Shown: one piece after another, positions 26,032 through 50,518 of the stretch
Position numbering within the stretch: position 1 is the stretch's first letter
Layout of the letters: the number at the start of each line of letters is the position of its first letter
Assembly: GCA_958366945.1 (NCBI GenBank)
Contig: CATXCY010000010.1
Location: 6,463-70,462, forward strand
Direction of reading: 5' to 3'
Length of the DNA: 64,000 bases
Source of the DNA: an uncultured bacterium
GTDB lineage: Bacteria; Vulcanimicrobiota; Xenobia; Xenobiales; Xenobiaceae
Program-made: the position numbers and the translations under genes
The notes under the pieces: model-generated
The model's input: only the letters and a program-made list of their open reading frames with translations
What the model was told of the DNA's origin: nothing
Database searches by the model: none

Positions 26032-27249
26032 ATGGCTAAATTTCCAGTGCTAGACGATAACTTTCCACGTATTATTCCTTCTTTCAGACAGTTAGTAAAA
26101 ATTATGTCCGAATGTGTGGCCGGCGGAGTTAGCTTAACTTGTACCGCCTTTGAGTTCCGCCAATGTGATGCTGCTTTAGGAACAGCTTTGGGCAATTTTA
26201 TGGAAGTTTTGCGCTTAAAAGAACTTCCTCCAGAGCGCAATGAAGCAATTAACGAAATAGTGCTTTTGTTTACGCGTATGAGTTCCGAAATGGCCAAATT
26301 AGAAACAGCTCTGAGTATGGATGCTACAGCTGCGGCCGTTTCTTGTGTGGCCAATATTTACGATCACTTAAAAGATTTGGAAGAATTAAATATGGACTTG
26401 AAAGCCGCTGTTGGCGATAGCCATATTTATTCCGAAGTGCCGGTGGTGGACAGTTTACTGCGAGCGGGCAATTTTGTCTTAGAAACTAACGGAGCCGAAT
26501 GGGAAGCTCTGAGTGCCCGTTTGGAAGCTCTTATTCCTCAGTGGAATGAGATCGTCTCTGGTACTGGACTGCCGGAAGAACTAATTCGCCACGACAGAGC
26601 GTTGGAGCGCCTCGTTGAGGTACTTAACGAGCGAAATTTAGAAGCTTTGCCAAAAGTTCTGGAAGAAGTAAAATCCAGCGGCGAAGATCTGGTCAACTTC
26701 CAAGATAGTCAAATAGACACCGATACTTCCTCTGTAGTTTTGTGCCCCTATTGTGGTAAGCCTATGATCGAGGGTAGTAAGAAGTGCTTCTCTTGCGGCG
26801 CCAGGATGCCAGAAGAATTTGAGCGAGATTCTACAGCCGACAAAGATTCTGAAAAAGGCGAAGCGGCTTATGAAGGCATGCCAGAATATGTACAGCGTAT
26901 TATGGATATCGCTCAAGAACTTCCCAATAATGCCAAGATGATTCGTCCTTTCAAACGTGCTGTGGGAGAATTGCGTAGACGTGTAGCCGATGCCAATTCG
27001 CGTATCAATAAAATGGCTTCTTCTAAAATTAAGACCACTCCGGAAGAACGCGAAAATATTGATGGCATCGTAGATTTAGCTAATACTTGCATAGAAAATC
27101 TCTCTAAAGCCGTTGAGCTTTTGGAGGAGTTTGAACCACCTGTCGACAGGTTCCATTTGCAATGTGCTTTGGAAGTTATGGTTAAAGCGGTCAAAGAAAT
27201 GCGTGGCATGGGCGGTTTGGCTCAAAAATATCGCAATTCTAAAAAGTAA
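26032..27249 (+). CDS. Zn-ribbon-containing helical protein, paralog A
   Basis: N-terminal motif FPVLDDNFPRIIP and central CPYCG...CFSCG ribbon. It aligns along its length to the next gene. Internal ATG chosen (ORF track starts at 25948). Confidence 0.5.
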   Translation: MAKFPVLDDNFPRIIPSFRQLVKIMSECVAGGVSLTCTAFEFRQCDAALGTALGNFMEVLRLKELPPERNEAINEIVLLFTRMSSEMAKLETALSMDATAAAVSCVANIYDHLKDLEELNMDLKAAVGDSHIYSEVPVVDSLLRAGNFVLETNGAEWEALSARLEALIPQWNEIVSGTGLPEELIRHDRALERLVEVLNERNLEALPKVLEEVKSSGEDLVNFQDSQIDTDTSSVVLCPYCGKPMIEGSKKCFSCGARMPEEFERDSTADKDSEKGEAAYEGMPEYVQRIMDIAQELPNNAKMIRPFKRAVGELRRRVADANSRINKMASSKIKTTPEERENIDGIVDLANTCIENLSKAVELLEEFEPPVDRFHLQCALEVMVKAVKEMRGMGGLAQKYRNSKK

Positions 27250-27294
27250 TCAGTTCTCTTTTGCGTGCACATGACACAGCTCATTGGAGGTACC

Positions 27295-28485
27295 ATGGTA
27301 GATAAGCTGCCTAAGCTAGATGATTCTTTCCCCAAATTGATTCCCCATTTGCGTACTTTTGTAAGTGGTTTGGAACATTGTATAGTCAATAAAGAACCTC
27401 TTTCCCAGCTTCGTGAAGAATTACACCAATGCGATGTTGTTATGTCTGCTTTTGTACTGGCTTTTAAGTACAGTGTGCGCGGCTATGACTACAACGAAGA
27501 AGAACTGGAACATATCGCTCAAGTTTATGCCGATATTGAAGGTGTCGGTGGTGTGCTTTCTTCTCTCATTTGTGATTTAAAAGACGATGATGTCGAAGGC
27601 GCTGTACGTGATGTTAATGCTCTGGTCAATCAGTTGAAAGAAACTGAAAAAAGCTTAGCCAAGCTCGAAGAACTAAGAAATTCCAAGGCAAAGATTTCTG
27701 AATTTGACAGCATTGATGGAGTCCTTAAAGCTGGTCAGGCCGTGGTTGAGGGACGTCGTGGTTGGGAAATGTTGGAAAATCGTCTCGACTATTTGCGCCC
27801 ATCTTTTGATAAGCTGGTCGCTTGCAACTCTTTGCCTGAGCATATAGAAGATTATTGCGAAGCTTTAGATAATTTATTTAGAGTTTGCGAATGTCAATCT
27901 GTAGAAGAATTACCTGCCGCCTTAGAAGCTTTAAAAGCGACTGGTGATGTACTGATAGAAAAATATAAAGAAGCTAAAGCTAAACAAGAAGCTTTGGCTG
28001 CACAACAAGTTTGGCATTGCCCTAAGTGTGGTTGTGAAGTCAGTGAATGGGATAAGCGTTGTCCTTCTTGTGGAATGAGGCTGCCTGAGCGTATCGTCAG
28101 TGAAGTAGGGACTGAGAATAATTGTTTATTGCCCATGTTACCTACATGCGTGCAAACAATTTTAGATAGCGTAAGCTCTTTGCGCGAAGGTAATGATGCT
28201 TGGGCCGAGTTCTCAGCTGGATTGCATGAATATGGCAAATTTGTAGGCGAGCTTAAAGATAGGTACGCCTCTTTGCCAGAAAGTGTTTTTAATGGCGCTG
28301 AAGCAGAAGGTGAGTCTTTGATTCTATCTCGCGAAGCTATGGAAGAAGGACTCACTAAATTAGAAAATGCCTATTATGTATGTGAACACATGCAAAATGG
28401 TGGCGAAGTTAGCGATGAGGAACTCGATTCTACGCTAGAAAGCATGATTGAGGGAGTAGAACAAACACGTCAAATAGCTGGTTAA
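27295..28485 (+). CDS. Zn-ribbon-containing helical protein, paralog B
   Basis: ATG after the RBS ggagg. N-terminus LPKLDDSFPKLIP, ribbon CPKCG...CPSCG, acidic helical regions. Collinear with paralog A. Confidence 0.55.
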   Translation: MVDKLPKLDDSFPKLIPHLRTFVSGLEHCIVNKEPLSQLREELHQCDVVMSAFVLAFKYSVRGYDYNEEELEHIAQVYADIEGVGGVLSSLICDLKDDDVEGAVRDVNALVNQLKETEKSLAKLEELRNSKAKISEFDSIDGVLKAGQAVVEGRRGWEMLENRLDYLRPSFDKLVACNSLPEHIEDYCEALDNLFRVCECQSVEELPAALEALKATGDVLIEKYKEAKAKQEALAAQQVWHCPKCGCEVSEWDKRCPSCGMRLPERIVSEVGTENNCLLPMLPTCVQTILDSVSSLREGNDAWAEFSAGLHEYGKFVGELKDRYASLPESVFNGAEAEGESLILSREAMEEGLTKLENAYYVCEHMQNGGEVSDEELDSTLESMIEGVEQTRQIAG

Positions 28486-28680: not shown

Positions 28681-29814
28681 ATGGGTGTTTTATCTACTGC
28701 TTCTACTATAGCTATGATGACGGCTAACGATTACAAGAATGCTCAAGCCATCTATGCTAATATGCAACAACAGGCTACGCTTGCCCAGAATGGTGGTATG
28801 GGAGTTCTTACCCAGCAAGCTCTTAAGGCTGCCTCCGCGCAGAATATGGAATTGCTTAATCAGCAAGCCGCGCAAGCCGCTAAAGCTTCCTCTGGCTCTT
28901 CTTCTATCGATTCTATATCATCTTCTTTTAGTGACCAGATTCAGCAACTGACCTCTTCCAATCTTTCTGTCACTGATCAGATTAGCCAGATTACTTCCGC
29001 TTCTGGTATGTCTGCTTCTTCTGCTGCTGGTTTTTCTACTTCTACAGATTTTACTCAGGCTATTATTGATAGCATTTCTTCTGCTAGCAAGTCTTCTTCC
29101 AGCTCCAGCACCAATAGCGACGTAATGACTAGCGCTACCAATATGCTGAAGACTTACTTCAAACAGTTCTGCCCTGGCATGAGCGATGAGCAAATTTCTG
29201 CTATTTGCAAATTTGCCGCCTCTCAGTATGGTGACCTGGCTAAGGCCATGGATATGAGTTCCTTAACTTCTAGCGTTATGGGCTCTTCTTCTACCGGCAG
29301 TGCCAGCAGCTCTGGAAGTGCTAGCAGTGTAGGTAACAATGGCAACTACGGCGCCAATAAGGGCGTAAGCGGTTTGCTTTCCGATGCTGGCGCTATGGTT
29401 GGTATGACTGAGCAGTCTAATGCTGCTTCTATTAACAAAATCACCAAAAAGAGTGGTATCAATTGCCAGACTACCCCTTGGTGCGCTGCTTGGGCAATGA
29501 ATATGCTCAAAGACCATGGTGTGTTGGATACTTCTTCTTGCTCCAACGTCAACTATTGTCCCACTATCGTAAACTGGGCCAAAAAAGAAAATATTTGGGC
29601 TGGTCGCGGTTCTTACACTCCTCAAGCTGGTGACGCGATCCTCTTCGACTGGCAGGGTGATGGTACTTCCGATCACATTGGTATCGTAGAAAAAGTCGCC
29701 AACGGTAAGGTTTATACCATTGAAGGTAACTCTTCTGACTCCGTGGCCAGAAGAAGCTACAGCTTGAGCAGTAGCAAAGTTATGGGCTATATCAACTGCG
29801 CCGCTCAAAAATAA
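28681..29814 (+). CDS. Polymorphic-toxin-like protein: low-complexity N-terminal region, conserved internal module, C-terminal CHAP-domain peptidoglycan amidase/peptidase
   Basis: ATG after the RBS agagagg. C-terminus TPWCAAWAMNML...AGDAILFDWQGDGTSDHIGIVEKVANGKVYTIEGNSS has the CHAP Cys and His motifs. No signal peptide. Confidence 0.6.
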   Translation: MGVLSTASTIAMMTANDYKNAQAIYANMQQQATLAQNGGMGVLTQQALKAASAQNMELLNQQAAQAAKASSGSSSIDSISSSFSDQIQQLTSSNLSVTDQISQITSASGMSASSAAGFSTSTDFTQAIIDSISSASKSSSSSSTNSDVMTSATNMLKTYFKQFCPGMSDEQISAICKFAASQYGDLAKAMDMSSLTSSVMGSSSTGSASSSGSASSVGNNGNYGANKGVSGLLSDAGAMVGMTEQSNAASINKITKKSGINCQTTPWCAAWAMNMLKDHGVLDTSSCSNVNYCPTIVNWAKKENIWAGRGSYTPQAGDAILFDWQGDGTSDHIGIVEKVANGKVYTIEGNSSDSVARRSYSLSSSKVMGYINCAAQK

Positions 29815-29844: not shown

Positions 29845-29888
29845 AACTCCCTCCGAGTATAAATTTAGCTCGGGGGGAGTTTTCTTTT
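29845..29888 (+). terminator. Rho-independent terminator
   Basis: AACTCCCTCCGAGtataaatttagCTCGGGGGGAGTTttctttt. Confidence 0.75.
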
Positions 29889-29993: not shown

Positions 29994-30938
29994 ATGTCTT
30001 TGCCATCTATCACCATGAATTTCTTGGCTGCGCAAGGTGTTGCGGGATTGCCAACCAGTTCCAATAGTGCAAGCACTGGCGTTAATAGTACTGCTGTTTC
30101 TGCTCTTGATAGCGCTTCTCTTAGTTCTTTAGCTACAGCAGGAACTGATGGATTGGCCAACCTTGGCTCTTTGTCTGATTACTTGTCTGGTCAGGCCTCT
30201 GGAAGTTCTGGCAGCAGTGCCTCTTTGGGACTTTCTGGCAGTGCCGATTTTGCTTCCATGGTTGGTGAAATTGCCAAGCAATATAAGGGCAGCAGTTCTT
30301 CTTCTGCCAACAATCAGGTAATGTCCACTGCTGCCAATATGTTAAAAACATATTTTAAGCAATTTTGTCCTGGTATGAGTGACGACCAGATTACCGCTAT
30401 TTGTAATATGGCCTCTGCACAATACGGCGATTTAGCTAAAGCTATGGATATGAGTTCTTTAACTTCCAGTGTTATGGGCTCTTCTTCTGCTGCTTCTGGA
30501 GCTACTGGCGCTTCTTCTAGTGCTGGTTCTTCCGCAGTTTCAAAAGTAAGTGCCAAAGACGTTAAGGGTACCGCTTGGGGCAAGGCTTTAGCTGCTGACG
30601 CAGAGTCTCATGCCACAGGTAGCGGCGGCTGGTGCTTCAAATATGTGCGCCAAGCTTTAGAGCGCCATGGAGTTACTGGAGTTGGTGGCGCCAGTGCTTA
30701 TATGGCTGCCGATCAATTAGCCCGCAATAGTAACTTCAAAGAAATTAGTGTTTCAGAATCAGATCTTCGCAATTTGCCTGCAGGTTATGTTGTCGTTTGG
30801 AATAGAGGTAACGGTGCTAGTAGGCAGCATGGCCATATTTGCATCTCTTTAGGCGATGGTAGAGAAGCTTCTGACGTTATTCGCAAAATGACTCAAGGAT
30901 ATGGCACTTCCTTTAGAGTTTTTCAGCCTGTAAAATAA
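29994..30938 (+). CDS. Polymorphic-toxin-like protein: low-complexity N-terminal region, same conserved internal module, C-terminal Tae4-like papain-fold peptidoglycan amidase
   Basis: C-terminus GGWCFKYVRQALERHG...AGYVVVWNRGNGASRQHGHICISLGDG parallels the Cys (xCxxxxxxLxxxG) and His (GH-hydrophobic) motifs of the Tae4 family of gamma-D-glutamyl-mDAP amidases. No signal peptide. Confidence 0.55.
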   Translation: MSLPSITMNFLAAQGVAGLPTSSNSASTGVNSTAVSALDSASLSSLATAGTDGLANLGSLSDYLSGQASGSSGSSASLGLSGSADFASMVGEIAKQYKGSSSSSANNQVMSTAANMLKTYFKQFCPGMSDDQITAICNMASAQYGDLAKAMDMSSLTSSVMGSSSAASGATGASSSAGSSAVSKVSAKDVKGTAWGKALAADAESHATGSGGWCFKYVRQALERHGVTGVGGASAYMAADQLARNSNFKEISVSESDLRNLPAGYVVVWNRGNGASRQHGHICISLGDGREASDVIRKMTQGYGTSFRVFQPVK

Positions 30939-30956
30939 GTTGCTATTAAAATAAAA

Positions 30957-31000
30957 AATAACGTTCTGTCTATATTTCATTTGCAGAACGTTATTTTTTT
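30957..31000. terminator. Bidirectional rho-independent terminator (convergent genes)
   Basis: aaaataAATAACGTTCTGtctatatttcatttgCAGAACGTTATTTTTTT. Confidence 0.75.
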
Positions 31001-31044: not shown

Positions 31045-33303
31045 CTAATCAAACATTTTATCTAATTCGGCTTTTTTAAAGCGTTGAGGCTCGTGACCAG
31101 TCCAGTCGATCACAAAATAAATCTTTTCTGGTTGTTGTATTTTGCTGAAAAAACGTATTTGATCTGTAGGTAGCATTTTATAATTGTAATACCAGCCAGT
31201 GGGAGAGGGTTTGGAAATTCCTTTGGCATGAAGATGGCGAGCACCTTTAGGGAAGAAGGGCATAACTCGTGCAGCCAATTTCTCGCCTAAAACTTTGCAC
31301 CCCATATCGCCGCGCATTATTAAGCGGAGGTGGGGAGCGAAGAGTAAGCTGCTTTCAAAGCCTACCGTCTGCCCTTGAAAATCGCCTTCTACGGTATCGC
31401 GAATTATCAATCTTTGTTCTGTAGGCTTAAAAAGAAGCTCACGTCTTAAACTTAAAACTAAACCGTTAGTTAGATGAGCTTGACGCCTTGTCCACAAGAG
31501 TACATCCGCTCCTCCTTTTCTTTCCCTATACAAAGGAGAGCAAAAAACGTAACCCTCTTTATGTATCTCAGTTATATTGTCAGGAAAATCTATGCGTTCG
31601 GAAGCGTTCAAATCTCCCAAATAGGCCACTTTAAAAGGCGAAACTTCCTCGGCAAGTGTGGGAGCGGAATGGGAAAAAAAGCTATTTAAATAAGGATAAG
31701 CGCTGCTAGAAATAGTGGAAAAACCAGCATCTATAAGGAATGGCTCATTTTCTATAGTTAAAAATATTGATAAGAAATCACAATGTGGCTGGGGCACAGC
31801 TTGGTGTAAATTGGGAGCTTTATAAAAACCTTTAGTTAGATCGGCAGTTGGACAACCTTTTATAATGGCCTGAGAACTGTTGGCTCCCCAATGATCACGC
31901 ACACTGCCTATACCATTGGCAACGAAATAAAAACTTGTCTCTTCAGGAAAATAATCTCCTCGACCAGCACCAAATTTGGCGGTGAGCTCTGGAGTAGGAG
32001 CTACCCACCAAGACACTTCCGCAGGCATACGCTCTATGCCACATAAGAATTCGTCATGGTCGAAAACTATGGCACCCAGACATAATAAAGTCTGAATATA
32101 CTCGGATATAGAGGATTGCCTTCCCATAAATCCTGGAGCACAAAATGTGCCTATATGAGGAGCTACTTTATTGGTGCCGTTAATAGCTTGCAAAGCTTCA
32201 AGAGAAATGCGCAGCGCTTCTGATAAATATTGCGGAGTTTGGGTATGATTGCTTACATGCTGCAATACAGGCAATAGCATCCATTCTAAAGCCGCACAAT
32301 GAGCGCATAAAGATCCACTTAAATGTAACCCGCTACTTCCAAACTCACGTTCAATAAGGTCTAAAAGCTTAGACTCTGCAACTGAACGCCACCGCTTAGA
32401 TAATTTTAATTCAGGAAAATTGCTTGCGAATACATAGAGACAGGCTGCAGCAGGGAACGATAAAACTGTATCGTAGCGAAGGTGCCAAGCCAAAGCTGCT
32501 CCGTGTACGATCATCGTTTCCATTATTTTCGCGAAAATACGGGGCGTAAAAGCAGAGCTGTGTAAACACATATCAACGGCAATCATCCAGTTCATCAGCC
32601 TGATGGCTACCGTATCAAAATTTAGCCAGTTTACACCTATCCAAAGAGGATTGCTGGCTCCCCATTCAGTCGCTTGAATGAGAATCTCGGAAGCGTATTT
32701 GTCCTGTTTGCTAAGCCAATAAGAGCGGGCCAAAGTGAGAAAATGATAATGCTCATTTAGCTCCCAGGTACGATCCAAAGAAGGATACTTGGCTAAGGGA
32801 GATTCGCTCAGATTGGCTTTATTATCCGGAGATAAAACTTTTCTCAGCTCTTTAACGGCAGTTCTAGGCCAGCTTCTAGAGCAAAAATCGGAAAACCAAT
32901 CAATGTTGCCAGTGAAAGTTTCTTGTTGGTTGGAAAGATAAGAAGAAAAAGTATGCCTCATCGCTTGCTGCGTCGAGTCACTGAGCTCTTTGACAGCTGA
33001 AGGAGAGGATTTAAACGCATTTGCAACTTCCTTGGTGTCTGAATGTCGCAAAAATAGCGTAGGGCGACTGCGGTCGCGGAAGTGATTGAAGAGCGCTTCC
33101 GCGGCCTTATCAGGTTGATCGTGCAAAGAATAATTTTTTGCTTCCTCGATTCCAGGTGCTCCAGAGAATTGCCCAAACAAATATTTGTCTTGCAAATCGT
33201 AAGTAGAACAACTGTCGTAAGCCAAATCGACCTGAGCCTCCAAGCTAAATGGCATGGAAGAAGTGATTATATTCTTACGTAACCAAGGAAACATATTATC
33301 CAA
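31045..33303 (-). CDS. Heparinase II/III-like (alginate-lyase superfamily) protein
   Basis: 752 aa. N-terminal alpha/alpha toroid-like region with W/N/R-rich motifs (WIGVNWLNFDTVAIRLMNWMIAVD) and a C-terminal beta-sandwich-like region. Immediately downstream of a DegT aminotransferase. Confidence 0.55.
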   Translation of the reverse strand: MDNMFPWLRKNIITSSMPFSLEAQVDLAYDSCSTYDLQDKYLFGQFSGAPGIEEAKNYSLHDQPDKAAEALFNHFRDRSRPTLFLRHSDTKEVANAFKSSPSAVKELSDSTQQAMRHTFSSYLSNQQETFTGNIDWFSDFCSRSWPRTAVKELRKVLSPDNKANLSESPLAKYPSLDRTWELNEHYHFLTLARSYWLSKQDKYASEILIQATEWGASNPLWIGVNWLNFDTVAIRLMNWMIAVDMCLHSSAFTPRIFAKIMETMIVHGAALAWHLRYDTVLSFPAAACLYVFASNFPELKLSKRWRSVAESKLLDLIEREFGSSGLHLSGSLCAHCAALEWMLLPVLQHVSNHTQTPQYLSEALRISLEALQAINGTNKVAPHIGTFCAPGFMGRQSSISEYIQTLLCLGAIVFDHDEFLCGIERMPAEVSWWVAPTPELTAKFGAGRGDYFPEETSFYFVANGIGSVRDHWGANSSQAIIKGCPTADLTKGFYKAPNLHQAVPQPHCDFLSIFLTIENEPFLIDAGFSTISSSAYPYLNSFFSHSAPTLAEEVSPFKVAYLGDLNASERIDFPDNITEIHKEGYVFCSPLYRERKGGADVLLWTRRQAHLTNGLVLSLRRELLFKPTEQRLIIRDTVEGDFQGQTVGFESSLLFAPHLRLIMRGDMGCKVLGEKLAARVMPFFPKGARHLHAKGISKPSPTGWYYNYKMLPTDQIRFFSKIQQPEKIYFVIDWTGHEPQRFKKAELDKMFD

Positions 33304-33315
33304 GCCGCAGATCTC

Positions 33316-34416
33316 CTAATGACGAGGGAAATTCTTAATTGTAGATACTACAGTGGCAATTTGCTCGTCGCTAAGTTCGGGGAACATAGGCAAGGACATG
33401 ACTTCTTTTTGCACTTGCTCGCAAATTGGCAAAGAGCCTTCCTTCATGCCGCTGGATGCAAAAGTTTTTTGCAAGTGAAGGCATACTGGGTAGTAAATGG
33501 CCGGACCAACACCGTTTTCACGCATATAATCGAAAAGCTCGTCACGATGAGGAGTGCGAATAGTGTACTGGTGGAAGACGTGATGGAAACCTTCGCGCTC
33601 AAGAGGAGTGATCACTCCGCTGTCTTTCAGAGCTTCTGTGTATTTTTGAGCTACAGAGCGACGCTTTTTATTCCACTCATCGACATGTTTGAGCTTGACG
33701 CGCAAAGCGGCAGCCTGAATTTCGTCTAAACGACTATTGGTGCCTAAAATTTCGTGATAGTATCTGACCTTACTGCCGTGACCGCGCAGCATTTGCACTT
33801 TTTCAAAGTACTCGTCGCTATTGGTTAAAACCATACCGCCGTCGCCAATACCGCCTAAGTTTTTGCTGGGGAAGAACGAGAAACAGCTGAGATCGCCGAA
33901 TCCTCCGACTTTTTTGCCATCTACGCAAGCTCCGGTAGCTTGAGCGCAGTCTTCAATTAAAGCTAAATTGTGCTCTTGGCAAATAGCCTTAATGGCTTTG
34001 ACATCGGCAGCGTGTCCGTAAAGGTGGACGCAAATTACAGCTTTGGTATGTGGAGTGATAGCTTTCTTTAAGCTTTCCGGATCTAAAGTAAAAGTGCGAG
34101 GGTCAATATCGGCAAATACAACTTTGGAACCAGCCAAAGCTACAGCGCCGGCGGAAGCTACAAAAGTGAAGGAAGGGACGATAACTTCATCGTCGGCTTT
34201 AAGATCTAGGGCTCTCACTGCCAATTGCAGAGCATCAGTGCCGTTCCCTACGCCTATACCGTGTTTAACTCCGTTCCAAGCCGCAAACTCTTCTTCGAAA
34301 GCTTTTACTTCGGGGCCTAAAACATATGCAGTAGAGCGCAGAACTTTCAGTACGGCTGCTTCCAATTCATCTTGGATTTGAGAGTACTGAGTGCGAAGCT
34401 CTAAAATAGGGATCAT
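33316..34416 (-). CDS. DegT/DnrJ/EryC1/StrS-family PLP-dependent sugar aminotransferase
   Basis: VIVPSFTFVASAGAVALAG, DCAQATGA, FSFFPSKNLG (PLP lysine). 366 aa. Confidence 0.88.
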   Translation of the reverse strand: MIPILELRTQYSQIQDELEAAVLKVLRSTAYVLGPEVKAFEEEFAAWNGVKHGIGVGNGTDALQLAVRALDLKADDEVIVPSFTFVASAGAVALAGSKVVFADIDPRTFTLDPESLKKAITPHTKAVICVHLYGHAADVKAIKAICQEHNLALIEDCAQATGACVDGKKVGGFGDLSCFSFFPSKNLGGIGDGGMVLTNSDEYFEKVQMLRGHGSKVRYYHEILGTNSRLDEIQAAALRVKLKHVDEWNKKRRSVAQKYTEALKDSGVITPLEREGFHHVFHQYTIRTPHRDELFDYMRENGVGPAIYYPVCLHLQKTFASSGMKEGSLPICEQVQKEVMSLPMFPELSDEQIATVVSTIKNFPRH

Positions 34417-34768
34417 AAATATGTCTCCTTCTATCCGTTCATCAGGAGCGGAACCGCTTTGATGGCAGAAAATTTCTCAGACTGAGTAAAATTTTCCGTC
34501 GGCAAAATATAGGTGATAAAAAATATCCAATCGGATTTTTGGCGTAGTATTGAAAATGCTTGTCTAAATGCCAAAACAGCGAGGGACGTACCGCTGCTCC
34601 AAAAACTGGAAGCACGGTTCGGCCAAATTGTTTCAGCGGAAGTATAGCACTCCAAAGACCTTACAAGCCACCTATTTTCCAAGCATAAGGGGCAAGCCCT
34701 GCCAAAACAGGTGATTTTTTTGTAACGAGGTCAAGTGAAGCGGCCGAAACTACGTCAAAAGTATGTTA

Positions 34769-36583
34769 TTAACCTTTGCTGCGTACTTCAAACTCTAAGC
34801 GCCATTTAGGAATGGAGTCTTGGCAACACCAAACTTCTAAGGTACCTACTTCGGTTACATAAGTTTCTAAAGTAACTGGTACTACTTTACCAATTTCTCC
34901 CGCTTCAGCCGGTAAAGTAATTTGCAACGAAGGCAATTCTTCTATATCGTCTTCCCAATCGTCGATTAAGTCACCAATTTTATCTTGCTGTCGACAAGTG
35001 GAAGCTAAAAATCTAAATTCAGCCAGTTCGCCTATGACCAGGCCGAAACTGCGATTAGGTAGACGCTCGCGTGAGTCTTCTTCCATGCCGAAAGGAGCGA
35101 CGCATAAAGCTTTAATGGGAGGAACAAGACCAGGAACAGCTGGCATGGAAGTTTCGATACCAACATAATAAGAGCGATTGGTACCGGCTTTAATTCTTAT
35201 TCCAGAACCTTGACTAGCCAAACCGCTGCGCACGGCTCCGCGAGCTACGGCCAAGTCGTAGTCCGCTCCTACTAATTCTTTGGCGGGAGGAGCTCCCACA
35301 GATTCTAACCAAGAGTTTACCGTTTCCAATAAACGACGGCGCAAGATGGGAGCTTTCAGCACGCCTCCGTTAAAGAGAATTGCTGTAGGAGCAAAAATGG
35401 GAGCGGAGCCATCTTCTGGTTTATTGGCTGCCAAAAATCTGGCCAAATGTTTGGTGATAGCCGGATTCGATTCAAAAGGCAAGCCCAATTCGCGCAAACC
35501 ACTTTGACGAGACCGTTCAGCTTGTTCATCAAGGGAACATTTAGGGAAGAATCCGTCTACAATTAGTTGCTCGGTAACTTGGCGGCTTAAGGAGTCGGCA
35601 ATGGAAGAAGCTATTAAGCTGCTGCCGCGTCCAGGAATGGTGACGCTCCACTCTTCCTCGGCGTATTCTTGTAACAGTTGCTCTTTGGCTGTGCGGCAAG
35701 CATGGGTGAGGACTTGCATTTGCCAAGCGTCAAGCTTAATTTTACGCTCTGATTTTAGCTTTTGCTGCATATACACAGCCAAAGTCAGATCCATGTTGTC
35801 TCCGCCAAGTAAGAGATGATCTCCTACAGCTGAGCGCTCTAAGCATAAGCTGCCGCCTTGGTCGGCTACAGTAATAAGGCTAAAGTCGGTAGTTCCTCCA
35901 CCTATATCACATACTAAAATTTTGTCTCCGACTGCTACTTGAGAGCGCCAATCTTCTTCAGTGTTAACCAACCAAGCATAAAAAGCGGCTTGAGGCTCTT
36001 CTAAGAGGGTTAAATTTTTGATGCCAGCTTTTTGAGCTGCTTGAACGGTTAGTTCTCTAGCTATCGTATCAAAGGAAGCAGGTACAGTTAAAACGACTTG
36101 CTGATCTTCTAAGGGCTGATCGGGGTGTTCAAAATTCCAAGCTGAACGTAAATGCTCCAAATAACGAGCCGAAGCGTCAATGGGGGAGATATGCTCCACT
36201 TCTTCGGGAGCGTTCCAAGGCAAAATAGGAGCACTGCGATCTATTTGCTCACTAGAAAGCCAAGACTTGGCTGAAGAAACAACTCTGTGGGGAACTTTAG
36301 CGCCTTGCTCACGGGCCATATATCCGACTATGTCTTTGGCCTCTTTATCCCAAGGCAATTCGATACTATGGGCTGGCAATTCGTGGGAGCCGGGGAAGTA
36401 AAGAAATGAAGGCAGAGTCTTGCGTGGCTCTACTGTAGCCGGATAGGTAAGCTGAGGAACAGCAAAATGATTTATAGGAGGAGTCTCTTTAGCTGCCTTC
36501 GCTTGTGCTGAAATGGATTCCGGATCAGACCAAGCTAAAGCGCAATTTGTTGTTCCCAAGTCTATACCTATAATCATATGCAA
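34769..36583 (-). CDS. Hsp70-family (actin-like ATPase) protein, non-canonical
   Basis: IIGIDLGTTNCALAW, VLTVPASFDTIARELTVQAAQKAGI, VCDIGGGTTDFSLI. Confidence 0.8.
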   Translation of the reverse strand: MHMIIGIDLGTTNCALAWSDPESISAQAKAAKETPPINHFAVPQLTYPATVEPRKTLPSFLYFPGSHELPAHSIELPWDKEAKDIVGYMAREQGAKVPHRVVSSAKSWLSSEQIDRSAPILPWNAPEEVEHISPIDASARYLEHLRSAWNFEHPDQPLEDQQVVLTVPASFDTIARELTVQAAQKAGIKNLTLLEEPQAAFYAWLVNTEEDWRSQVAVGDKILVCDIGGGTTDFSLITVADQGGSLCLERSAVGDHLLLGGDNMDLTLAVYMQQKLKSERKIKLDAWQMQVLTHACRTAKEQLLQEYAEEEWSVTIPGRGSSLIASSIADSLSRQVTEQLIVDGFFPKCSLDEQAERSRQSGLRELGLPFESNPAITKHLARFLAANKPEDGSAPIFAPTAILFNGGVLKAPILRRRLLETVNSWLESVGAPPAKELVGADYDLAVARGAVRSGLASQGSGIRIKAGTNRSYYVGIETSMPAVPGLVPPIKALCVAPFGMEEDSRERLPNRSFGLVIGELAEFRFLASTCRQQDKIGDLIDDWEDDIEELPSLQITLPAEAGEIGKVVPVTLETYVTEVGTLEVWCCQDSIPKWRLEFEVRSKG

Positions 36584-36624
36584 ACGTCTCCCAGAATAGT
36601 TTATAAAAGTCCCAATTTACCAGG

Positions 36625-37131
36625 CTATAACTCTACTTCAGCCGGACAAATAACGTCTGAATCTTCGTCCTGAGCGCTTTGGGGCAAATTGGCTTTTTGT
36701 AAGCGCCAGCCTTTGTGACGCAAGATCCCTTTGAAGGGCGGATCGCCTTCTACTTTGCCTACCAAACGAATTGCGCCTGGATCGAAGCCGTCTTCTACAG
36801 TAATTTCTATACCTTCTTCTTCGGTACGGATAGGCTCCAGAATCAAATACTCTTGGACAGCTTTGCGGCAGCCTTTATAAACAGTAGATTTTACTACAGC
36901 TCCGACTTGAGCGTCAGGGACATTCTCTAAATCTTCTTGCAAAAAGTCTATAAGCCGTCCTTCTCTCTGAAGCAAAGCTAAAACTCCTACCGCACCGGGA
37001 TAAAGCGAAGGTACTCCGGACGGAGTTTCTTGAACAACTTCGCGATCTGCCAGCAGAAGAGCCAACTTTTCGGCAAATTCTTTATTAAACAAAGCTTTGA
37101 AAAAAGCTTTAAAAGCTGTGATTATACGCAT
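36625..37131 (-). CDS. Small acidic protein, possibly DUF2760-like Hsp70 partner
   Basis: 168 aa, N-terminus MRIITAFKAFFKALF, directly downstream of the Hsp70-like gene on the same strand. Confidence 0.35.
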   Translation of the reverse strand: MRIITAFKAFFKALFNKEFAEKLALLLADREVVQETPSGVPSLYPGAVGVLALLQREGRLIDFLQEDLENVPDAQVGAVVKSTVYKGCRKAVQEYLILEPIRTEEEGIEITVEDGFDPGAIRLVGKVEGDPPFKGILRHKGWRLQKANLPQSAQDEDSDVICPAEVEL

Positions 37132-37259
37132 GATCTAAATTTTTGCCAAATTGGTGTCGACTCCTTGCCTTTATGTAATGTGGTAACAGCCGACGCTTCT
37201 TGACCGAAGTAAAACCTCTCTAACTGTAGATTCTTTTATCAGTGCATTGACACTATTGG

Positions 37260-38210
37260 TTAGCTGGCGCAGGCACGTTGCAATCTGTCTCTAACTGCGG
37301 CCCAACTTTCTTCATTTTGTGGTGGTTGTTCTATAAGAATGGATTGCGGCCGCAAGCTGTCCGCATACCTAAGCATACTATAAATAGATTGAGCGTATGC
37401 TTGAGGATCGTTTGGCAAACTGAGGCAGCGTACTTGTTGAGCATCAGGTATTGTCAACTTGTGCATAGCTAAAACTACCAATGGTGATGGATTGCATTTT
37501 ATAAGCTCAGATAACTCGGCGCCAGATACCATTCGTGCTGGAGTGTTGGGAGCGTAATGCTTCTTCAAGGTGCCTGGAGCTTTGCTGCCTTGGCCGCAAG
37601 CAATGGGAAAACCAGCAATTTCGCTAATTACTGAAGCACTAAGCATACCTGGACGGACAATGACTGGTTTATCCTTGGAAAAATCGACAATGGTAGATTC
37701 TACACCTACGGCACAAGGGCCGCCGTCCAGTATGTATTTAAGCTGATCGCCAAATTCTTCGCGTACGTGTTCAGCGCTGGTAGGGCTGATATGACCGAAG
37801 CGATTGGCTGAAGGGCCGATAATACCACGCCCGAACACGGAAATAAGCTCTCTGGTTAAGGGATGAGCTGGAATCCTTATTCCTACGCTATCTTGGCCAC
37901 CGGTTACTTGTGGCAATACTTCAGGGCGTTTGGGCAAAATAAGGGTCATGGGGCCTGGCCAAAAATGTTCAGCTAATTTGCGGGCTGCTTCTGGCACCTC
38001 TCTAGCCCAAAGCTCCAATTTGTCTAAACTATCTAAGTGGACAATAGAAGGATGATCGGCTGGTCTACCTTTTAGGGCGTACACTTTGCGGATAGCTTCT
38101 ATATTGGATGCATCTGCTCCTAAACCGTATACTGTTTCCGTAGGAAAAGCGACCATACCGCCTTGGGCCAACTCTTGAGCCGCTTGTTTTATAAGTTCGT
38201 TGTCAAACAT
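37260..38210 (-). CDS. L-threonylcarbamoyladenylate synthase (Sua5/YrdC/TsaC family, long Sua5 form)
   Basis: GGMVAFPTETVYGLGADASN YrdC motif plus a C-terminal Sua5 domain. 316 aa. Confidence 0.88.
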   Translation of the reverse strand: MFDNELIKQAAQELAQGGMVAFPTETVYGLGADASNIEAIRKVYALKGRPADHPSIVHLDSLDKLELWAREVPEAARKLAEHFWPGPMTLILPKRPEVLPQVTGGQDSVGIRIPAHPLTRELISVFGRGIIGPSANRFGHISPTSAEHVREEFGDQLKYILDGGPCAVGVESTIVDFSKDKPVIVRPGMLSASVISEIAGFPIACGQGSKAPGTLKKHYAPNTPARMVSGAELSELIKCNPSPLVVLAMHKLTIPDAQQVRCLSLPNDPQAYAQSIYSMLRYADSLRPQSILIEQPPQNEESWAAVRDRLQRACAS

Positions 38211-38368
38211 ATTTACGACTTTCTTTATTAAGGTGAAATCTTAAGGTTGCGGCGCTACTTCGCACAAAAAGAAAACCGTCCCCCCGCATGAAGGGACGGT
38301 TCATCGATTTTTTGAAGTTTCGAAAGACGAAAACAACCTAAAATCAGTAGATCGTTAGCTGATTTTTT

Positions 38369-38689
38369 TTAGCGGCGGGCTCCACCGTGATTTTTGAAGC
38401 ACTCCGCGCAATAAATGGGCTTATCGTTGCGAGGGCGGAAAGGTACTTTGGCGGTTTTGCCGCACTCAGCGCAAACTACTTCGAACATTTCACGAGTACC
38501 GTTAGAACGGCCTAAAGAGCCATTTTCACGCTCGCGTTTGTGGTTGCGGCGACACTCTGGGCAGCGGCGGGGATCACTGGAAAAACCTTTAGAACTGTAA
38601 AACTCTTGTTCACCGGCTGTAAAAACGAAAGTCTCGCCACAATCACAGCAAGTTAAAGTACGATCAGAAAACACTCTAATTTCCTCCAA
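38369..38689 (-). CDS. Internally duplicated zinc-ribbon protein (2 x CxxC...CxxC)
   Basis: CCDCGETFVFTAGEQEFY...CPECRRNH and CAECGKTAKVPF...CAECFKNH. Confidence 0.5.
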   Translation of the reverse strand: MEEIRVFSDRTLTCCDCGETFVFTAGEQEFYSSKGFSSDPRRCPECRRNHKRERENGSLGRSNGTREMFEVVCAECGKTAKVPFRPRNDKPIYCAECFKNHGGARR

Positions 38690-39176
38690 CAGGAAGTTGC
38701 CAACGGGAATGCGAGCTTCTCGACATACTTCCCAGGGGTCTAAACCCAGGAATCATCGGATACCAACAAATTTCGCCTGCTAAAATGCAGGTCTTACGAG
38801 TTCTCTCCGCAATGGATGATGCCCCACCCATATTTATTTTGACTAAATACAAGCAACGAAACAACCAGCATTAAGGGAAGCCGTAGCTTTTATTCCAATT
38901 CGCACCAAAATTGTAGACCGCCCCTAAAAAGTAGTCAAGGAGTGAAAGTGGCGAAAGGTTAAGAAAAATTTAATTAAATTGAGCTGAATTTTGCTTATAA
39001 TGCGCCTTTCTGCATGAATAAAGAGAATGAAAATGTATATCTCTCGAATCTACCTTTTCTAGTAAAAAAATAAAATCAATCAATAAAATATTGCACTTTG
39101 TCCTATCGCTTTATTTATGGAAAAAATCCTATAAATGTACCAAGTAAAAAGTACTTAACCTAAAAGCAAGTATAAT

Positions 39177-40880
39177 CTATTGACTGATTAATTTGCGCAA
39201 ATCCCCGTATTGTCTGATCTTAAACCAAGTTAATTCTCCGTTAAGTAAGTAACGCCAGGCTACAGCTCCCATTTTTATGAAATTAGTTGCCCAAGCTAAA
39301 TAAAACGGAAATTGCCAATGACGTTTAAAAAAATCTCGTCGCTCTAGCAAGAAATTTATGAAACTTTTGGGTATGAACGATTTTGAAGCCAGACAGTATA
39401 TAGCTAAATAAAAGCGATCTTCTGGACTACGAGGCCAATCCATCGAAACACGGAACTGCTTCCAAGCTTTGTTGTTCATGCCTTCAACCTCATCGGGAGA
39501 AAGTTTGCCTTCAGCCAGTAATCTTTTGGTTATGGCTGTGCCTGGAAAATAGTTAAGTGAGTAAAAATAGACGTCGTAAGGGCGTTCTAGCTCTAACATA
39601 AACTTGGCTGTTTCTAATTTCATCTTTTCATCGGCCCAAGGGTTGTCGATAATTAGATCATAAACAGCTGATATGCCCAGTTGTTTGTTGAATTTGGAAA
39701 AGGCTAGTATATTATCGTTGCCCGGTATGCGGTTATGAACAGCCAAACTTTCCTGCGGTGAGCCGCTTTCGATGCCTGTTTGCATTCGGACCAAGCCGGC
39801 TTTTTTTAGCTTCTCCAGAAAAGGCTGACGTAACATAGGTGGTATAAGCATACATTCAAAGGGCAAACCTATACGCTGTGGATATTTTGAGCAGAATTCG
39901 TCTACCCATGAGGGAGGGGCTGCAAAAGCTGTATCATCATCTATTTTTACTCTAGCCAAACGGGGAAAATGCTTTTTTATATATTCAAGCTCGCCTAAAA
40001 TGTGCTCTACGGAGCGTAGACGATAAAATTTTTGTTTGTCGGCCGCAAATTTTTCGCGCAGAATAGATACATAACAGTAAGAACAATTATAAGGACAGCC
40101 CCGTGAACAATAAATTCTGTATTCAGCTGTTCTCTTCCAGGGCTCTTCATTGTGAATTTTTTTATCTTCTATATAAAACTTATTGAAATCGTCTACATCT
40201 GGATAAGGCAATTCGTCCAAGTTGGCAATTAGAGGGCGCATTTCGTTTTTGTAAATTTTGTCTCCCAACTTTGCCCAAATATTGGGAATATCGCCGGTAA
40301 AATTATTGCTGTATAGAGCCTCGCATAAGTCTATAAGTGGAGCTTCTCCTTCGCCCAGACAGAGATAATCGGCGCAATCTAAAGCTCCTTCGGGGACAGC
40401 AGTAACGTGAATACCGCCCCAACATACTGGTAAATCAGAAAAGCGTTTTTTTAGTGCTTTGGTAAGCTCTTTTACCATTGGCAACAAGCTAGAAATAAAG
40501 CCTATGCCTACAAGATTGGCTTGTTTGTCGGCTATAATTTTGAATACCAACTCTAGTTCTTGAGCTGAAGGCATTTCCAATTTGTTATTTACCCAATCGC
40601 GCAAGAAAATTAGATCCACCTGGAAACCGGCGCGGCGTAAAGCTGCTGATAAGTAGCGCAAACCGGAATTTTCAACGCTGTAAATAGCTATTAATATTAC
40701 ATTAAATTGTTTTGGCTCTCCGTACCAACCAGAGCGAGGTGCCCAGGGAGCATGAATTTGTTTCTGTGCCGATCCTAAAGCCGGATCGAAAAGAGCCTCT
40801 GCCGATCCTGGAGAAGCGCCGGGAGCAGTTAATTTTGATGAAAAATTGTCATAAGTAATAGTTTTATCTGAATTTAACAT
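39177..40880 (-). CDS. B12-binding-domain radical SAM protein
   Basis: N-terminal B12-binding Rossmann region (VILIAIYSVENSGLRYLSAALRRAGF), radical SAM motif CSRGCPYNCSYC. Overlaps the upstream gene by 7 nt. Confidence 0.8.
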   Translation of the reverse strand: MLNSDKTITYDNFSSKLTAPGASPGSAEALFDPALGSAQKQIHAPWAPRSGWYGEPKQFNVILIAIYSVENSGLRYLSAALRRAGFQVDLIFLRDWVNNKLEMPSAQELELVFKIIADKQANLVGIGFISSLLPMVKELTKALKKRFSDLPVCWGGIHVTAVPEGALDCADYLCLGEGEAPLIDLCEALYSNNFTGDIPNIWAKLGDKIYKNEMRPLIANLDELPYPDVDDFNKFYIEDKKIHNEEPWKRTAEYRIYCSRGCPYNCSYCYVSILREKFAADKQKFYRLRSVEHILGELEYIKKHFPRLARVKIDDDTAFAAPPSWVDEFCSKYPQRIGLPFECMLIPPMLRQPFLEKLKKAGLVRMQTGIESGSPQESLAVHNRIPGNDNILAFSKFNKQLGISAVYDLIIDNPWADEKMKLETAKFMLELERPYDVYFYSLNYFPGTAITKRLLAEGKLSPDEVEGMNNKAWKQFRVSMDWPRSPEDRFYLAIYCLASKSFIPKSFINFLLERRDFFKRHWQFPFYLAWATNFIKMGAVAWRYLLNGELTWFKIRQYGDLRKLISQ

Positions 40881-42049
40881 AGCGGACTTACCCTTTTTAT
40901 TTCGTTAGCTAGATCCGAGGGAGAAGGCAGAGGCTTAGCGGAAAAACGGCGGAAATTCATGCGCAGAGCGTTAAAAAAAGCGGAGGTATTATGCAAAGTT
41001 AAAGCTATCTCCCACCAACAAGGACGCAAGCAAGCTCGACAATTATGACGCAAATTTTTGAGATAATTTAAGTCGCGTTTTTGCTGGTACCAATTTACAA
41101 AATCGCTTTCATAGACTTTGGGCGCTTTACTGGAAGCGTCATTTTGAAAATGACACATAGAGTAAGTGCCGCTTGGGCTGATAGAAAAACTAAGGCCGCC
41201 AGTTTGGCAATCTGTTCCTGTGCCCCAATAATTGGTATTCGTCTGTTGCGCAGTAGTAGATTTTGTGCTGTCGGCAGCTTTTAAGAAATTGACCATAGCT
41301 TTTAAATAAGGCTCAGAATTAAAAATCGGTGATTGTGGTTGCCGTTTAGCTTGTAATATGTAGTTAAGCAATTTGTTGAGAGCGGCTTCATCTTTTTCAC
41401 TAAAGCGCATTGCTTCTGAATCAGCAGAACAAGCCAGAATTTCTCCTTGATAGCTGTGTCTTTCTAAGGGAACTAAAGATAAATAAAAATTATAGGCTTT
41501 GGCTATAGCTAGCATTTGCGGAATATCTTTTATATTGCGCGTTGAAACTACACAATTTAAGATGCCAGTTCCGCCACGTTTACGAATTATTTCCGCCCAA
41601 AATTTAATTCGCTCAATTATCTTTTCCCAAATTTCTGGCTTGTGGCATATTTCACTCTGAACTTGGGGATGAGGAGTATCTAAAGAAATTGAAATGTGAC
41701 GCAACCCAGCCTCGACTACTGCCATATGTAATTCCTCTGTGCCTGCTAGGGCGTTGGTCAAGACTCTAGTTTCAATTCCTCTGTCGATAAAAGCTTTGAC
41801 TATTTTAGGTAAGTCTGGGCGCAGAAAAGGTTCACCACCTCCCAGAGAAATGGCCATAGTGCCGAGGCGACGCAGATTATCGGCTGTGGATTCTATTTGC
41901 GCAATTGTAAGTTCTTCGTCTTGACGCCCTTTTTTCCATAATCCACACATGGCACAAGTGAGGTTGCAGCGGTGAGTCAAGCCAAAATGAACATATATAG
42001 GTGTGTTGCCGTTCCAAAAAGCTTTAACAAGCGACCAAGGGTTTTTCAC
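40874..42049 (-). CDS. Radical SAM protein with C-terminal SPASM-like Cys cluster
   Basis: THRCNLTCAMCG (CxxxCxxC), GGGEPFLRPDL, C-terminal CRACLRPCWWE. Confidence 0.75.
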   Translation of the reverse strand: MKNPWSLVKAFWNGNTPIYVHFGLTHRCNLTCAMCGLWKKGRQDEELTIAQIESTADNLRRLGTMAISLGGGEPFLRPDLPKIVKAFIDRGIETRVLTNALAGTEELHMAVVEAGLRHISISLDTPHPQVQSEICHKPEIWEKIIERIKFWAEIIRKRGGTGILNCVVSTRNIKDIPQMLAIAKAYNFYLSLVPLERHSYQGEILACSADSEAMRFSEKDEAALNKLLNYILQAKRQPQSPIFNSEPYLKAMVNFLKAADSTKSTTAQQTNTNYWGTGTDCQTGGLSFSISPSGTYSMCHFQNDASSKAPKVYESDFVNWYQQKRDLNYLKNLRHNCRACLRPCWWEIALTLHNTSAFFNALRMNFRRFSAKPLPSPSDLANEIKRVSPLC

Positions 42050-43503: not shown

Positions 43504-43567
43504 AAGGTTGTTTTGACAGCTCTCGGACTTTTATTGCATGTATATGCATTGATTAATTAGCGGATTG

Positions 43568-44596: not shown

Positions 44597-44623
44597 GTTG
44601 CTTTTTGTCTCTCCGTATTGTGC

Positions 44624-46423: not shown

Positions 46424-46607
46424 CTTACTGCGTATTGACTAATCCTATCCAGATCAACTCTAAGGTAGCTTCGGTCTAAGGCTGGTAGCTACCGACAGAA
46501 AAGTCAATTATCCCTTTCTGAAAATTAGATTGTCTATTTTGTGCGTTGTCAGTGAAAGCAATAAACTGAAATTTCAAGACTTATTTTCCGCTCAAATTTA
46601 GGAAATA

Positions 46608-49842: not shown

Positions 49843-49927
49843 AAGGTTGTCTCTACCTTTAGAGGTTGCCTTTTAGGTAAAAAAATTAGTTATTTTACGC
49901 AAGTTTTTCTGTGGTGGAGGAAAACAA

Positions 49928-50404: not shown

Positions 50405-50486
50405 GCAAAGCGTAAAGCCTACGTTATTCTTTTGAAGCATATATAAAGTGTTTTCAGGTGGCGCTGCTTTAGAATTTAAGATTGAG

Positions 50487-50518
50487 ATCTGCGCAGGTTT
50501 CTGCGCGGATATTTTTTT
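50487..50518 (+). terminator. Rho-independent terminator inside the dcw cluster (ftsL-ftsI spacer)
   Basis: ATCTGCGCAGgtttCTGCGCGGATatTTTTTTg: 10-bp stem with one G-U pair, plus a T-run. Confidence 0.6.

Follow-up and report, generated by a model that had tools for sequence, protein, structure and literature searches.

Tae3, an effector exported through a type VI secretion system (T6SS), is the closest solved relative of the catalytic domain described here (R. pickettii structures 4HZ9/4HZB; Salmonella Tae3-Tai3). It has been described as a D,D-endopeptidase (PMC12700454) and as using a Cys-His-Ser triad (PMC10318531). Tae4 (4HFF, 4J30, 4JUR) likewise belongs to the superfamily of papain-like Cys-His wall hydrolases, with the cysteine on a helix and the histidine on a strand; as a DL-endopeptidase, it cuts gamma-D-Glu-mDAP. 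Autolysins of the modular NlpC/P60 and CHAP types, such as LytE, LytF, CwlS, CwlO, PcsB, SagA, and MepS, carry Sec or lipoprotein signals and are targeted by folded domains (LysM, coiled coil). Wall hydrolases that do without a signal peptide are not unprecedented, as FlgJ, pneumococcal LytA, and canonical phage endolysins attest; in FlgJ, a disordered N-terminal half precedes the C-terminal hydrolase, and the protein has a machine of its own for export.

We analyzed a gene from a member of the Vulcanimicrobiota, located in a 64-kb stretch of DNA that is referred to below as the window. The original prediction was that it encodes a Tae4-like papain-fold amidase domain, fused to a different N terminus and standing outside any T6SS context.

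The gene and its downstream region

The open reading frame (ORF) begins with ATG and is preceded by a Shine-Dalgarno-like sequence, GGAAGGTG. The identical 314-aa protein was found, in the same synteny, on contigs from many metagenomes. The gene and the features downstream of it are as follows.

29994..30938, plus strand: Tae3-like hydrolase gene encoding 314 aa, with a presumably disordered N-terminal carrier and a C-terminal hydrolase domain (ORF list, sequence)
30953..30999, no strand assigned: hairpin with an A run on one side and a T run on the other (folding)
31045..33303, minus strand: convergent heparinase II/III-like gene (Pfam Hepar_II_III_N, 1.3e-18)

Only 106 bp separate the stop codon of the 314-aa ORF from the convergent gene, and a search for a downstream ORF in this gap, which has no room for one, found none. 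The hairpin (-18.4 kcal/mol, z -8.16, equaled by 0 of 200 shuffles) is probably a bidirectional intrinsic terminator serving both the Tae3-like gene and the convergent gene. An automatic consensus terminator scan passed over this terminator and a further one at 29845-29881 because their stems failed the criteria of the scan; both were confirmed by folding. The expectation that a terminator and a convergent gene directly follow the ORF, leaving no immunity ORF downstream, was thus borne out.

The C-terminal domain is a relative of Tae3

A Pfam-A scan of the 314-aa protein returned zero families at an E value of ≤1 (NLPC_P60, CHAP, and Tae4 included), scans against NCBIfam and PHROGs gave chance-level matches only (E values of 0.23 and 0.042, respectively), and a single-sequence search of the PDB likewise gave only a chance match. 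In a collection of 5.8 billion proteins, 125 homologues were found, all of them unnamed "hypothetical" proteins, and most of these matched the last ~125 residues only, with 45 to 74% identity. We aligned the catalytic region of 40 diverse copies (alignment A1). Twenty-four columns were invariant, including those of Cys214, Gly280-His281, Glu291, and Ser293 (full-length numbering), and Asp294 was kept in 39 of the 40 sequences. The features of the domain are the following.

30561..30935, plus strand: Tae3-like papain-fold catalytic domain (residues 190 to 314)
30633..30635, plus strand: codon of Cys214, the predicted nucleophile (invariant, 40/40; aligns with the Tae3 family cysteine)
30834..30836, plus strand: codon of His281, the predicted general base, in a G-H-I motif (invariant, 40/40; aligns with the Tae3 G-H)
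30864..30875, plus strand: E291-A-S293-D294 motif (E, S, and D invariant or nearly so in the family)

When the A1 profile was searched against all PDB sequences (hmmsearch), 4hz9/4hzb was the single real relative (E value of 0.02), with both the cysteine and the histidine stretches aligned, and Tae4 chains were absent even at an E value of ≤10. An AlphaFold2 (AF2) model built on A1 (pLDDT 94.5, pTM 0.90) displayed a papain-like core, with the cysteine at the N terminus of a helix and the histidine on a β-strand. In the fold search, Tae3 was the top structural match by a wide margin, and Tae4 ranked under ordinary NlpC/P60 autolysins and endolysins.

The Tae3 family was gathered with the Salmonella protein (122 aa, annotated as "NlpC/P60 family protein"), whose gene is directly followed by a YbjP/YqhG-family gene, i.e., Tai3. 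Alignment of A1 to 103 aligned Tae3 proteins by hhalign gave a probability of 95.7% and an E value of 9.8e-9 over 91 columns, with 29% identity. Cys214 shares its column with the Tae3 family cysteine (Cys24 of the Salmonella protein), which is kept in 100 of the 103 proteins, and the counterpart of His281 is the G-H motif of Tae3, which in the R. pickettii protein is GHPHGH. The S-D pair, near-invariant in the Tae3 family (S in 95 and D in 94 of 96), falls in the same columns as Ser293-Asp294. By alignment alone, Ser293 is likely the third member of a Cys-His-Ser triad.

Many relatives of the window protein score 15 to 25 bits against the Pfam CHAP model, whose cutoff is 26, and Tae3 itself scores 21.5 bits against NLPC_P60, whose cutoff is 23; because these scores lie below threshold, neither family is annotated. 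Taken together, the fold and profile matches bear out the prediction of a C-terminal papain-fold (NlpC/P60-CHAP superfamily) Cys-His hydrolase akin to type VI amidase effectors. The two peptides that had been put forward as catalytic motifs (residues 211 to 226 and 263 to 289) do hold the catalytic cysteine and histidine, Cys214 and His281, but their counterpart is Tae3 and not Tae4. With no Pfam match, no Tae4 in the PDB profile search, a low Tae4 rank in the fold search, and Tae3 best in both sequence and fold, we rejected the Tae4 assignment; the catalytic domain is Tae3-like, a relative of Tae3 rather than of Tae4.

A low-complexity N-terminal carrier without a Sec signal

The prediction that the domain is fused to a different N terminus held, the extension of ~190 aa being an unrelated sequence that Tae proteins lack. 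Residues 1 to 190 consist to 64% of S, G, A, T, N, and Q, and on composition only, residues 1 to 189 are presumed to be disordered.

29994..30560, plus strand: low-complexity N-terminal region (residues 1 to 189; 24.7% Ser, 15.8% Ala, 10% Gly)
29994..30041, plus strand: N-terminal 16-residue peptide MSLPSITMNFLAAQGV, conserved in homologues

The 16-residue peptide is retained in homologues that are 49 to 54% identical overall (P0014, MSLSPITMNFLAAQGV; P0015, MGMSPVNMNFMQSQGA). By a crude heuristic, it has neither a basic n-region nor a hydrophobic core and is not a Sec signal; it may be an export or targeting signal of another kind. The N terminus of the window protein contains a weakly hydrophobic stretch without a basic n-region, and the idea of a weak membrane anchor of the SAR-endolysin type was not adopted.

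Among 233 complete family members, the domain lies at the extreme C terminus, with a median tail of 1 residue, and is preceded by an N-region of median length 133 aa that is rich in G, A, S, Q, P, M, and N and has few charges; many of these regions are strikingly rich in Met, Gln, and Gly. A Sec-like signal was absent from 228 of the 233, as judged by a crude hydrophobicity heuristic, while other proteins of the same genomes bear textbook signal peptides. Since no Sec signal is present here or in ~98% of the family members checked, the route to the wall would be Sec independent. In some relatives (13/233), a recurring D-x-V-x-L-S motif precedes the domain. Export of the flagellar FlgM/FlgJ type was considered and dropped, given that the motif occurs in only these 13 proteins and that there was no FlgM or FlgJ Pfam match.

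A tandem CHAP paralogue shares a 53-residue module

Directly upstream lies a second hydrolase gene, with which the Tae3-like gene has part of its carrier in common.

28681..29814, plus strand: CHAP paralogue with an S/Q-rich carrier and the shared module (Pfam CHAP, 8e-13, residues 281 to 367 of the 394-aa ORF)
29845-29881, strand unstated: terminator of the CHAP gene (-25.1 kcal/mol, z -6.0)
30318..30476, plus strand: 53-aa module VMSTAANMLKTYFKQFCPGMSDDQITAICNMASAQYGDLAKAMDMSSLTSSVM (residues 109 to 161 of the Tae3-like protein), common to the upstream CHAP gene

The CHAP paralogue, which is called as 377 aa on identical contigs, matches PHROG endolysin families with E values down to 1.8e-17. 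Its copy of the 53-aa module is 83% identical to that of the Tae3-like protein (BLASTP E value of 4e-28). Two further genomes retain the pair together with its module and the synteny downstream: a human-gut metagenome-assembled genome (MAG; L008), with 94 to 95% identity to the window pair, and a second species (L009), where identity is 65 to 72% and the module is again present in both paralogues. GC content is flat across the window (0.39 to 0.46), and given this and the conserved synteny, a horizontal-transfer island was rejected. Rather than being an orphan, the window gene comes second in a conserved tandem arrangement whose first gene is a CHAP-domain paralogue.

A zinc ribbon protein is the recurring neighbor

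Clustering of all ORFs in 82 related loci yielded a sole strongly recurring neighbor family, which we call c1. The window contains two copies upstream of the hydrolase pair.

26032..27249, plus strand: c1a, 405 aa, all-helical with a central CxxC...CxxC zinc ribbon (neighbor clustering, alignment, Pfam, AF2)
27271..28485, plus strand: c1b, the second copy of the zinc ribbon partner, 26% identical to c1a

The c1 alignment contains the four invariant cysteines of the zinc ribbon, Pfam matches are to zinc ribbons only, and a search for c1 in the PDB found no relatives. The AF2 model consists of helical bundles and the ribbon (pLDDT 76.9, pTM 0.38), and a fold search with it gave generic helical-bundle matches only. 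In a six-frame HMM search, 18 of the 93 family genes had c1 no more than 3 kb away, mostly as the immediate neighbor. This adjacency holds across four different gene orders: c1 divergent from an operon of hydrolase and acidic ORF, with an RraA-like gene after c1; c1 adjoining RNase E/G and EEP nuclease; c1 between CxxCxxCC proteins; and the gut-lineage arrangement, as in the window. In four independent look-ups outward from c1, two encountered a divergent family gene, one a 198-aa "carrier-only" protein without a catalytic head, and the remaining one (L088) no family gene within 6 kb. Homologues of c1 are confined to MAGs of the Eremiobacterota type, and that of Candidatus Bruticola sp. is 90% identical to the window copy, which assigns the window to a gut-associated lineage of the Vulcanimicrobiota, class Ca. 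Xenobia. Because only about one-fifth of the paralogues have c1 adjacent, c1 would not be a per-copy immunity protein.

In ~10 related loci, the hydrolase gene is directly followed by small acidic ORFs of 110 to 145 aa that have no signal peptide (c3, ~140 aa; c6, ~110 aa); the window has no equivalent of c3 or c6. The other recurrent neighbors are housekeeping genes, encoding histidine kinases, UvrD, a subtilase, a tubulin-like protein, HlyD, PilT, and RNase E/G.

Family size, distribution, and link to peptidoglycan

When 1.84 billion cluster representatives were searched exhaustively with an HMM, 1430 of them proved to be members of the Tae3-like family at an E value of ≤1e-3 and 932 at ≤1e-10. 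The family, for which Pfam has no model, is found mainly in Vulcanimicrobiota/Ca. Xenobia and also in Myxococcota and Sericytochromatia/Blackallbacteria. Some soil Xenobia (isolates ACE_ERE1 and SCN18) have at least six family loci per genome, and tandem arrays of three to four copies occur at two loci (L005/L011). In one genome, a relative lies directly after mreB-mreC-mreD-pbp2-rodA. A related species from the gut (L091) lacks the hydrolase heads.

Few family members bear recognizable partner domains. PG_binding_1 is fused to the domain in P0253 (two repeats), P0141 (one), and P0239 (one), with E values of 4.9e-35, 8e-15, and 8e-13 in family members. P0224, a protein of 1191 aa with a tape-measure-like look, combines a Glucosaminidase domain (1.5e-10) with the family domain, P0229 has a signal peptide and a weak SleB-type hydrolase match in addition to it, and on a phage contig (L096) the domain is fused to LysM (1.2e-7). 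The window protein itself contains no PG_binding_1, LysM, or Glucosaminidase domain; it is the fusions of its relatives to these domains that tie the Tae3-like domain to peptidoglycan. Among 2.9 million viral contigs (IMG/VR), only five relatives of the domain were found, one of them combining it with LysM and one with a lipoprotein-type signal. On these grounds, an origin as a typical phage endolysin family was rejected.

Search for T6SS and immunity genes

The annotated ORFs of the window encode an MFS transporter, a response regulator, a small pilin/PilC cluster, a polysaccharide deacetylase, MutL, a Fic protein, DnaG, RpoD, a DEAD-box helicase, a pair of Hsp70-like and DUF2760 proteins, Sua5, radical-SAM proteins, and the dcw cluster from mraW on. 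No T6SS family was present among the annotated ORFs of the window, and no T6SS or other secretion apparatus recurred in the flanks of ~90 related loci. A phmmer search of six-frame ORFs, of limited sensitivity since it relied on a single Salmonella Tai3 query, found no Tai3-like ORF at an E value of ≤10 in the window or in the ~90 loci, and Tai3-like immunity was dropped. The predicted lack of a T6SS context was thereby confirmed for the window and the related loci; within the sequence examined, the gene is not part of a T6SS effector-immunity module, and nothing points to a more distant T6SS. The picture of an orphan domain did not survive, given the tandem CHAP gene with its 53-aa module and the two c1 copies upstream.

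Proposed mechanism, target, and alternative explanations

On balance, we favor the view that the gene encodes a Sec-independent, peptidoglycan-cleaving cysteine hydrolase of the Tae3 type. In the proposed mechanism, the Ser/Ala/Gly-rich carrier would be recognized by a Sec-independent export route, and Cys214, at the start of a helix, would act as the nucleophile and attack an amide within the peptide moiety of the sacculus. His281, which is located on the central sheet, would act as the base, oriented by Ser293 of the invariant E-x-S-D motif. The substrate would be cross-linked stems, as for DD-endopeptidases acting on mDAP-D-Ala cross-links, a bond specificity that is probable from the ~26 to 29% identity to Tae3. 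For the part of a cognate chaperone, adaptor, or regulator, the leading candidate is the cytoplasmic c1, present in two copies beside two hydrolases.

Whose wall would be cleaved is a separate matter, and our tentative preference is for the producer's own, the enzyme being an autolysin, a remodeling enzyme, or one that clears the way for a machine. The gene is syntenic, vertically inherited, and set in a core neighborhood, it has no immunity gene, and one relative directly follows mreB-mreC-mreD-pbp2-rodA. However, it would be unusual for a wall hydrolase with a housekeeping role to lack a signal peptide, and the c3/c6 ORFs downstream, the tandem arrays, and the presence of at least six loci per genome fit a weapon at least as well. 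That the walls of other bacteria are the target is possible, if rather doubtful. The enzyme would then be an antibacterial or predatory lytic effector, a proposal that we regard as somewhat unlikely, with the carrier as a one-step Sec-independent secretion signal, the CHAP and Tae3-like heads as a two-enzyme cocktail against other bacteria, and c1 and the c3/c6 of relatives as chaperones or adaptors. The closest characterized relative is indeed a T6SS toxin, the Sec signal is absent, and one carrier module joined to two different hydrolase heads follows the logic of polymorphic toxins. The paralogue expansion (at least six loci each in ACE_ERE1 and SCN18, three to four tandem copies at L005/L011) and the cytoplasmic acidic ORFs of 110 to 145 aa directly downstream in ~10 loci point the same way, as does the absence of the heads from the related gut species, which is expected of accessory weapons. 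The hosts of the family (Xenobia, Myxococcota, and Sericytochromatia/Blackallbacteria) also include lineages for which predation is suspected or known; a predatory lifestyle has been suggested for a marine UBP9 family (PMC9259500), and a secreted wall hydrolase has been postulated, not identified, in contact killing by Myxococcus (PMC8460266). On the other hand, no secretion apparatus gene recurs near family members, the locus is without an immunity gene, and the synteny, vertical inheritance, and normal GC content of the gene, together with the copy after mreB-mreC-mreD-pbp2-rodA, speak against a weapon. It is unlikely, in our view, that the family is the cargo of an unrecognized Sec-independent export or delivery route, with the carrier as its signal and c1 and c3/c6 as adaptors or chaperones, by which Xenobia and some Myxococcota/Sericytochromatia lyse other bacteria; if this were true, the family would be a candidate for the kind of secreted wall hydrolase postulated in predatory contact-dependent killing (PMC8460266).

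Two further explanations dispense with a wall hydrolase of this kind. A cytoplasmic papain-fold amidase or protease that is regulated by c1 and acts on a nonwall substrate (a small-molecule amide or a protein) would account for the missing export signal, but relatives fuse the domain to PG_binding_1, LysM, glucosaminidase, and signal or lipoprotein peptides, the nearest homologue is a wall endopeptidase, and the sister gene carries a CHAP domain with endolysin-family matches, so that we consider this very improbable. We give even less credence to the original prediction of a displaced T6SS amidase effector of the Tae4 family, whose Tai4-type immunity gene and T6SS would lie elsewhere in the genome. 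Tae4 was matched neither in Pfam (E value of ≤1) nor in the PDB profile search (E value of ≤10) and ranked structurally below ordinary NlpC/P60 autolysins and endolysins, and the ~190-aa extension is foreign to Tae proteins. Moreover, no immunity gene adjoins it, whereas Tai3 stays beside Tae3 even where the latter is an orphan, and T6SS genes were found neither within the 64-kb window nor flanking the ~90 loci.

Significance and comparison with known systems

The class of enzyme is known; what is new is the family, its architecture, its phylogenetic home, and its conserved partner. The Tae3-like family is matched in neither Pfam nor NCBIfam, none of the sources searched gives it an informative name, and a Pfam-type model of the domain would annotate more than 1000 clusters of "hypothetical" proteins. 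The interest of the locus lies in the export route and in c1, rather than in the claimed resemblance to Tae4 or in a displaced T6SS toxin. If the favored reading of a Sec-independent wall hydrolase is true, a Tae3-type wall endopeptidase domain whose sole known form has been a small proteobacterial T6SS toxin is the catalytic head of a very large family without annotation. The phylum concerned has barely been studied and has members in human and animal guts; the architecture of the family implies a non-Sec route to the wall, and the family has a conserved cytoplasmic partner, c1. Pairing of c1 with the hydrolase gives a concrete point of entry into the way in which Xenobia remodel or attack cell walls, and the CHAP and Tae3-like pair offers, in compact form, lytic activities that may complement each other. 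If the enzyme is simply a lineage-specific autolysin, the outcome is a corrected annotation: Tae3-like, not Tae4-like, and not a T6SS effector.

Compared with Tae3, which is a single domain of ~120 aa, the window protein has 314 aa, including the presumably disordered extension of ~190 aa. The Tae3 gene is directly followed by tai3, encoding a lipoprotein immunity protein of the IseA/YbjP family, and Tae3 is exported by the T6SS, whereas the window gene has no Tai3 and no T6SS gene in the sequence examined; it differs further in its conserved partner, c1, and in its host, a member of the Vulcanimicrobiota. Unlike the modular autolysins, the Tae3-like family has neither a Sec or lipoprotein signal nor a folded targeting domain, and it scores below the Pfam thresholds, with 17 to 21 bits for CHAP in relatives and no match for the window protein. 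FlgJ, LytA, and the phage endolysins have catalytic folds that differ from that of the window domain, and the window gene neither lies in a flagellar, holin, or phage context nor matches the FlgM or FlgJ families. Polymorphic toxin systems likewise combine a shared N-terminal module with alternative C-terminal hydrolase heads in adjacent genes. The window pair, in contrast, has no trafficking domain in Pfam (PAAR, Rhs, LXG, etc.) and no immunity gene after either head, terminators following both directly, and it displays stable synteny instead of cassette shuffling.

Genes adjoining the zinc-ribbon partner

RNA-degradosome-type genes repeatedly adjoin the zinc-ribbon helical partner protein c1, both in the window (c1 copies at 26032-27249 and 27271-28485) and in related loci. 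The c1 stop codon is overlapped by an RraA-like gene in soil Xenobia (loci L040, L045, L089, and L090), RNase E/G lies two genes from c1 in another lineage (L058, L078, and L079), and a DEAD-box/DbpA helicase is encoded about 3 kb upstream of c1 in the window. Because genes of this type recur beside c1, the protein might be an RNA-linked regulator instead of a chaperone.

The N-terminal carrier

In a related gut species (L091), the two c1 genes are still present, as is the heparinase-like gene downstream, and a single 198-aa Met/Gly/Ser-rich protein (8579-9175), consisting of the carrier without a catalytic domain, replaces both hydrolases. Since the carrier is encoded there on its own, it may have a function of its own. 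The N-termini of the relatives P0188, P0139, P0133, P0155, and P0222 are extraordinarily rich in Met, Gln, and Gly (e.g., MDPRMMMMMQQQQQMMMMEQMMGMLMQMM and repeated PMMMGG units), and we know of no precedent for such N-termini among wall hydrolases.

Genomic surroundings in the window and in relatives

Three further gene groups were observed in the window, namely, a small cluster of type IV pilus/T2SS-like genes, a minus-strand block probably devoted to polysaccharide or sugar modification, and a dcw (division and cell-wall) cluster that starts about 18 kb downstream from the two hydrolase genes.

Gene groups of the window
4319-4879, PilX_N protein
4848-5510, protein with prepilin-type N-methylation motif
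5413-6786, unannotated 457-aa ORF
6777-7823, T2SSF/PilC-like protein
within 4319-8917 (pilus/T2SS-like cluster), ORF of 357 aa that weakly matches a receiver domain
31045-47996 (-), heparinase II/III-like protein, two DegT-type aminotransferases, flavin amine oxidase, and four B12-binding/radical-SAM or radical-SAM proteins, interspersed with an Hsp70-like + DUF2760 pair and Sua5
48853-63047, mraW, ftsI-type PBP, murE, murF, mraY, murD, ftsW, murG, and one more ORF of 483 aa

At L005/L011 (5113-8768) and L013, three to four tandem Tae3-like family paralogues (254 to 272 aa) are followed by a 596- to 642-aa PLDc_2 protein and a metallo-beta-lactamase-fold protein, an arrangement kept in two genomes. 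At L006/L020 (911-9061), from a Vulcanimicrobiota MAG, the order is mreB, mreC-like, an mreD-size ORF, PBP2, and RodA, then an ankyrin-repeat protein (247 aa), a family member (228 aa), and an overlapping uncharacterised 125-aa ORF.

Many family-bearing MAGs are labelled at NCBI as Riflebacteria, Burkholderiales, Gammaproteobacteria, Selenomonadaceae, Muribaculaceae, etc. However, the gene content of the discordantly labelled MAGs (L008 [CAAGRW010000158.1], L010, L016, L022, L028, L059, and others) fits Xenobia/Eremiobacterota loci, and these are therefore probably mislabelled bins.

Comparison with the Salmonella Tae3-Tai3 locus

In Salmonella Infantis (CP148763.1; L087, 8974-9860), the pair formed by Tae3 and its immunity protein Tai3 lies between flk/pdxB and fabB. 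The record, deposited as a 500-kb plasmid, holds the core chromosomal genes accD, folC, fabB, and aroC, and thus resembles a piece of a chromosome. Its sole annotations for the pair are "NlpC/P60 family protein" (Tae3) and "YbjP/YqhG family protein" (Tai3), and within the L087 stretch the pair stands far from any T6SS gene.
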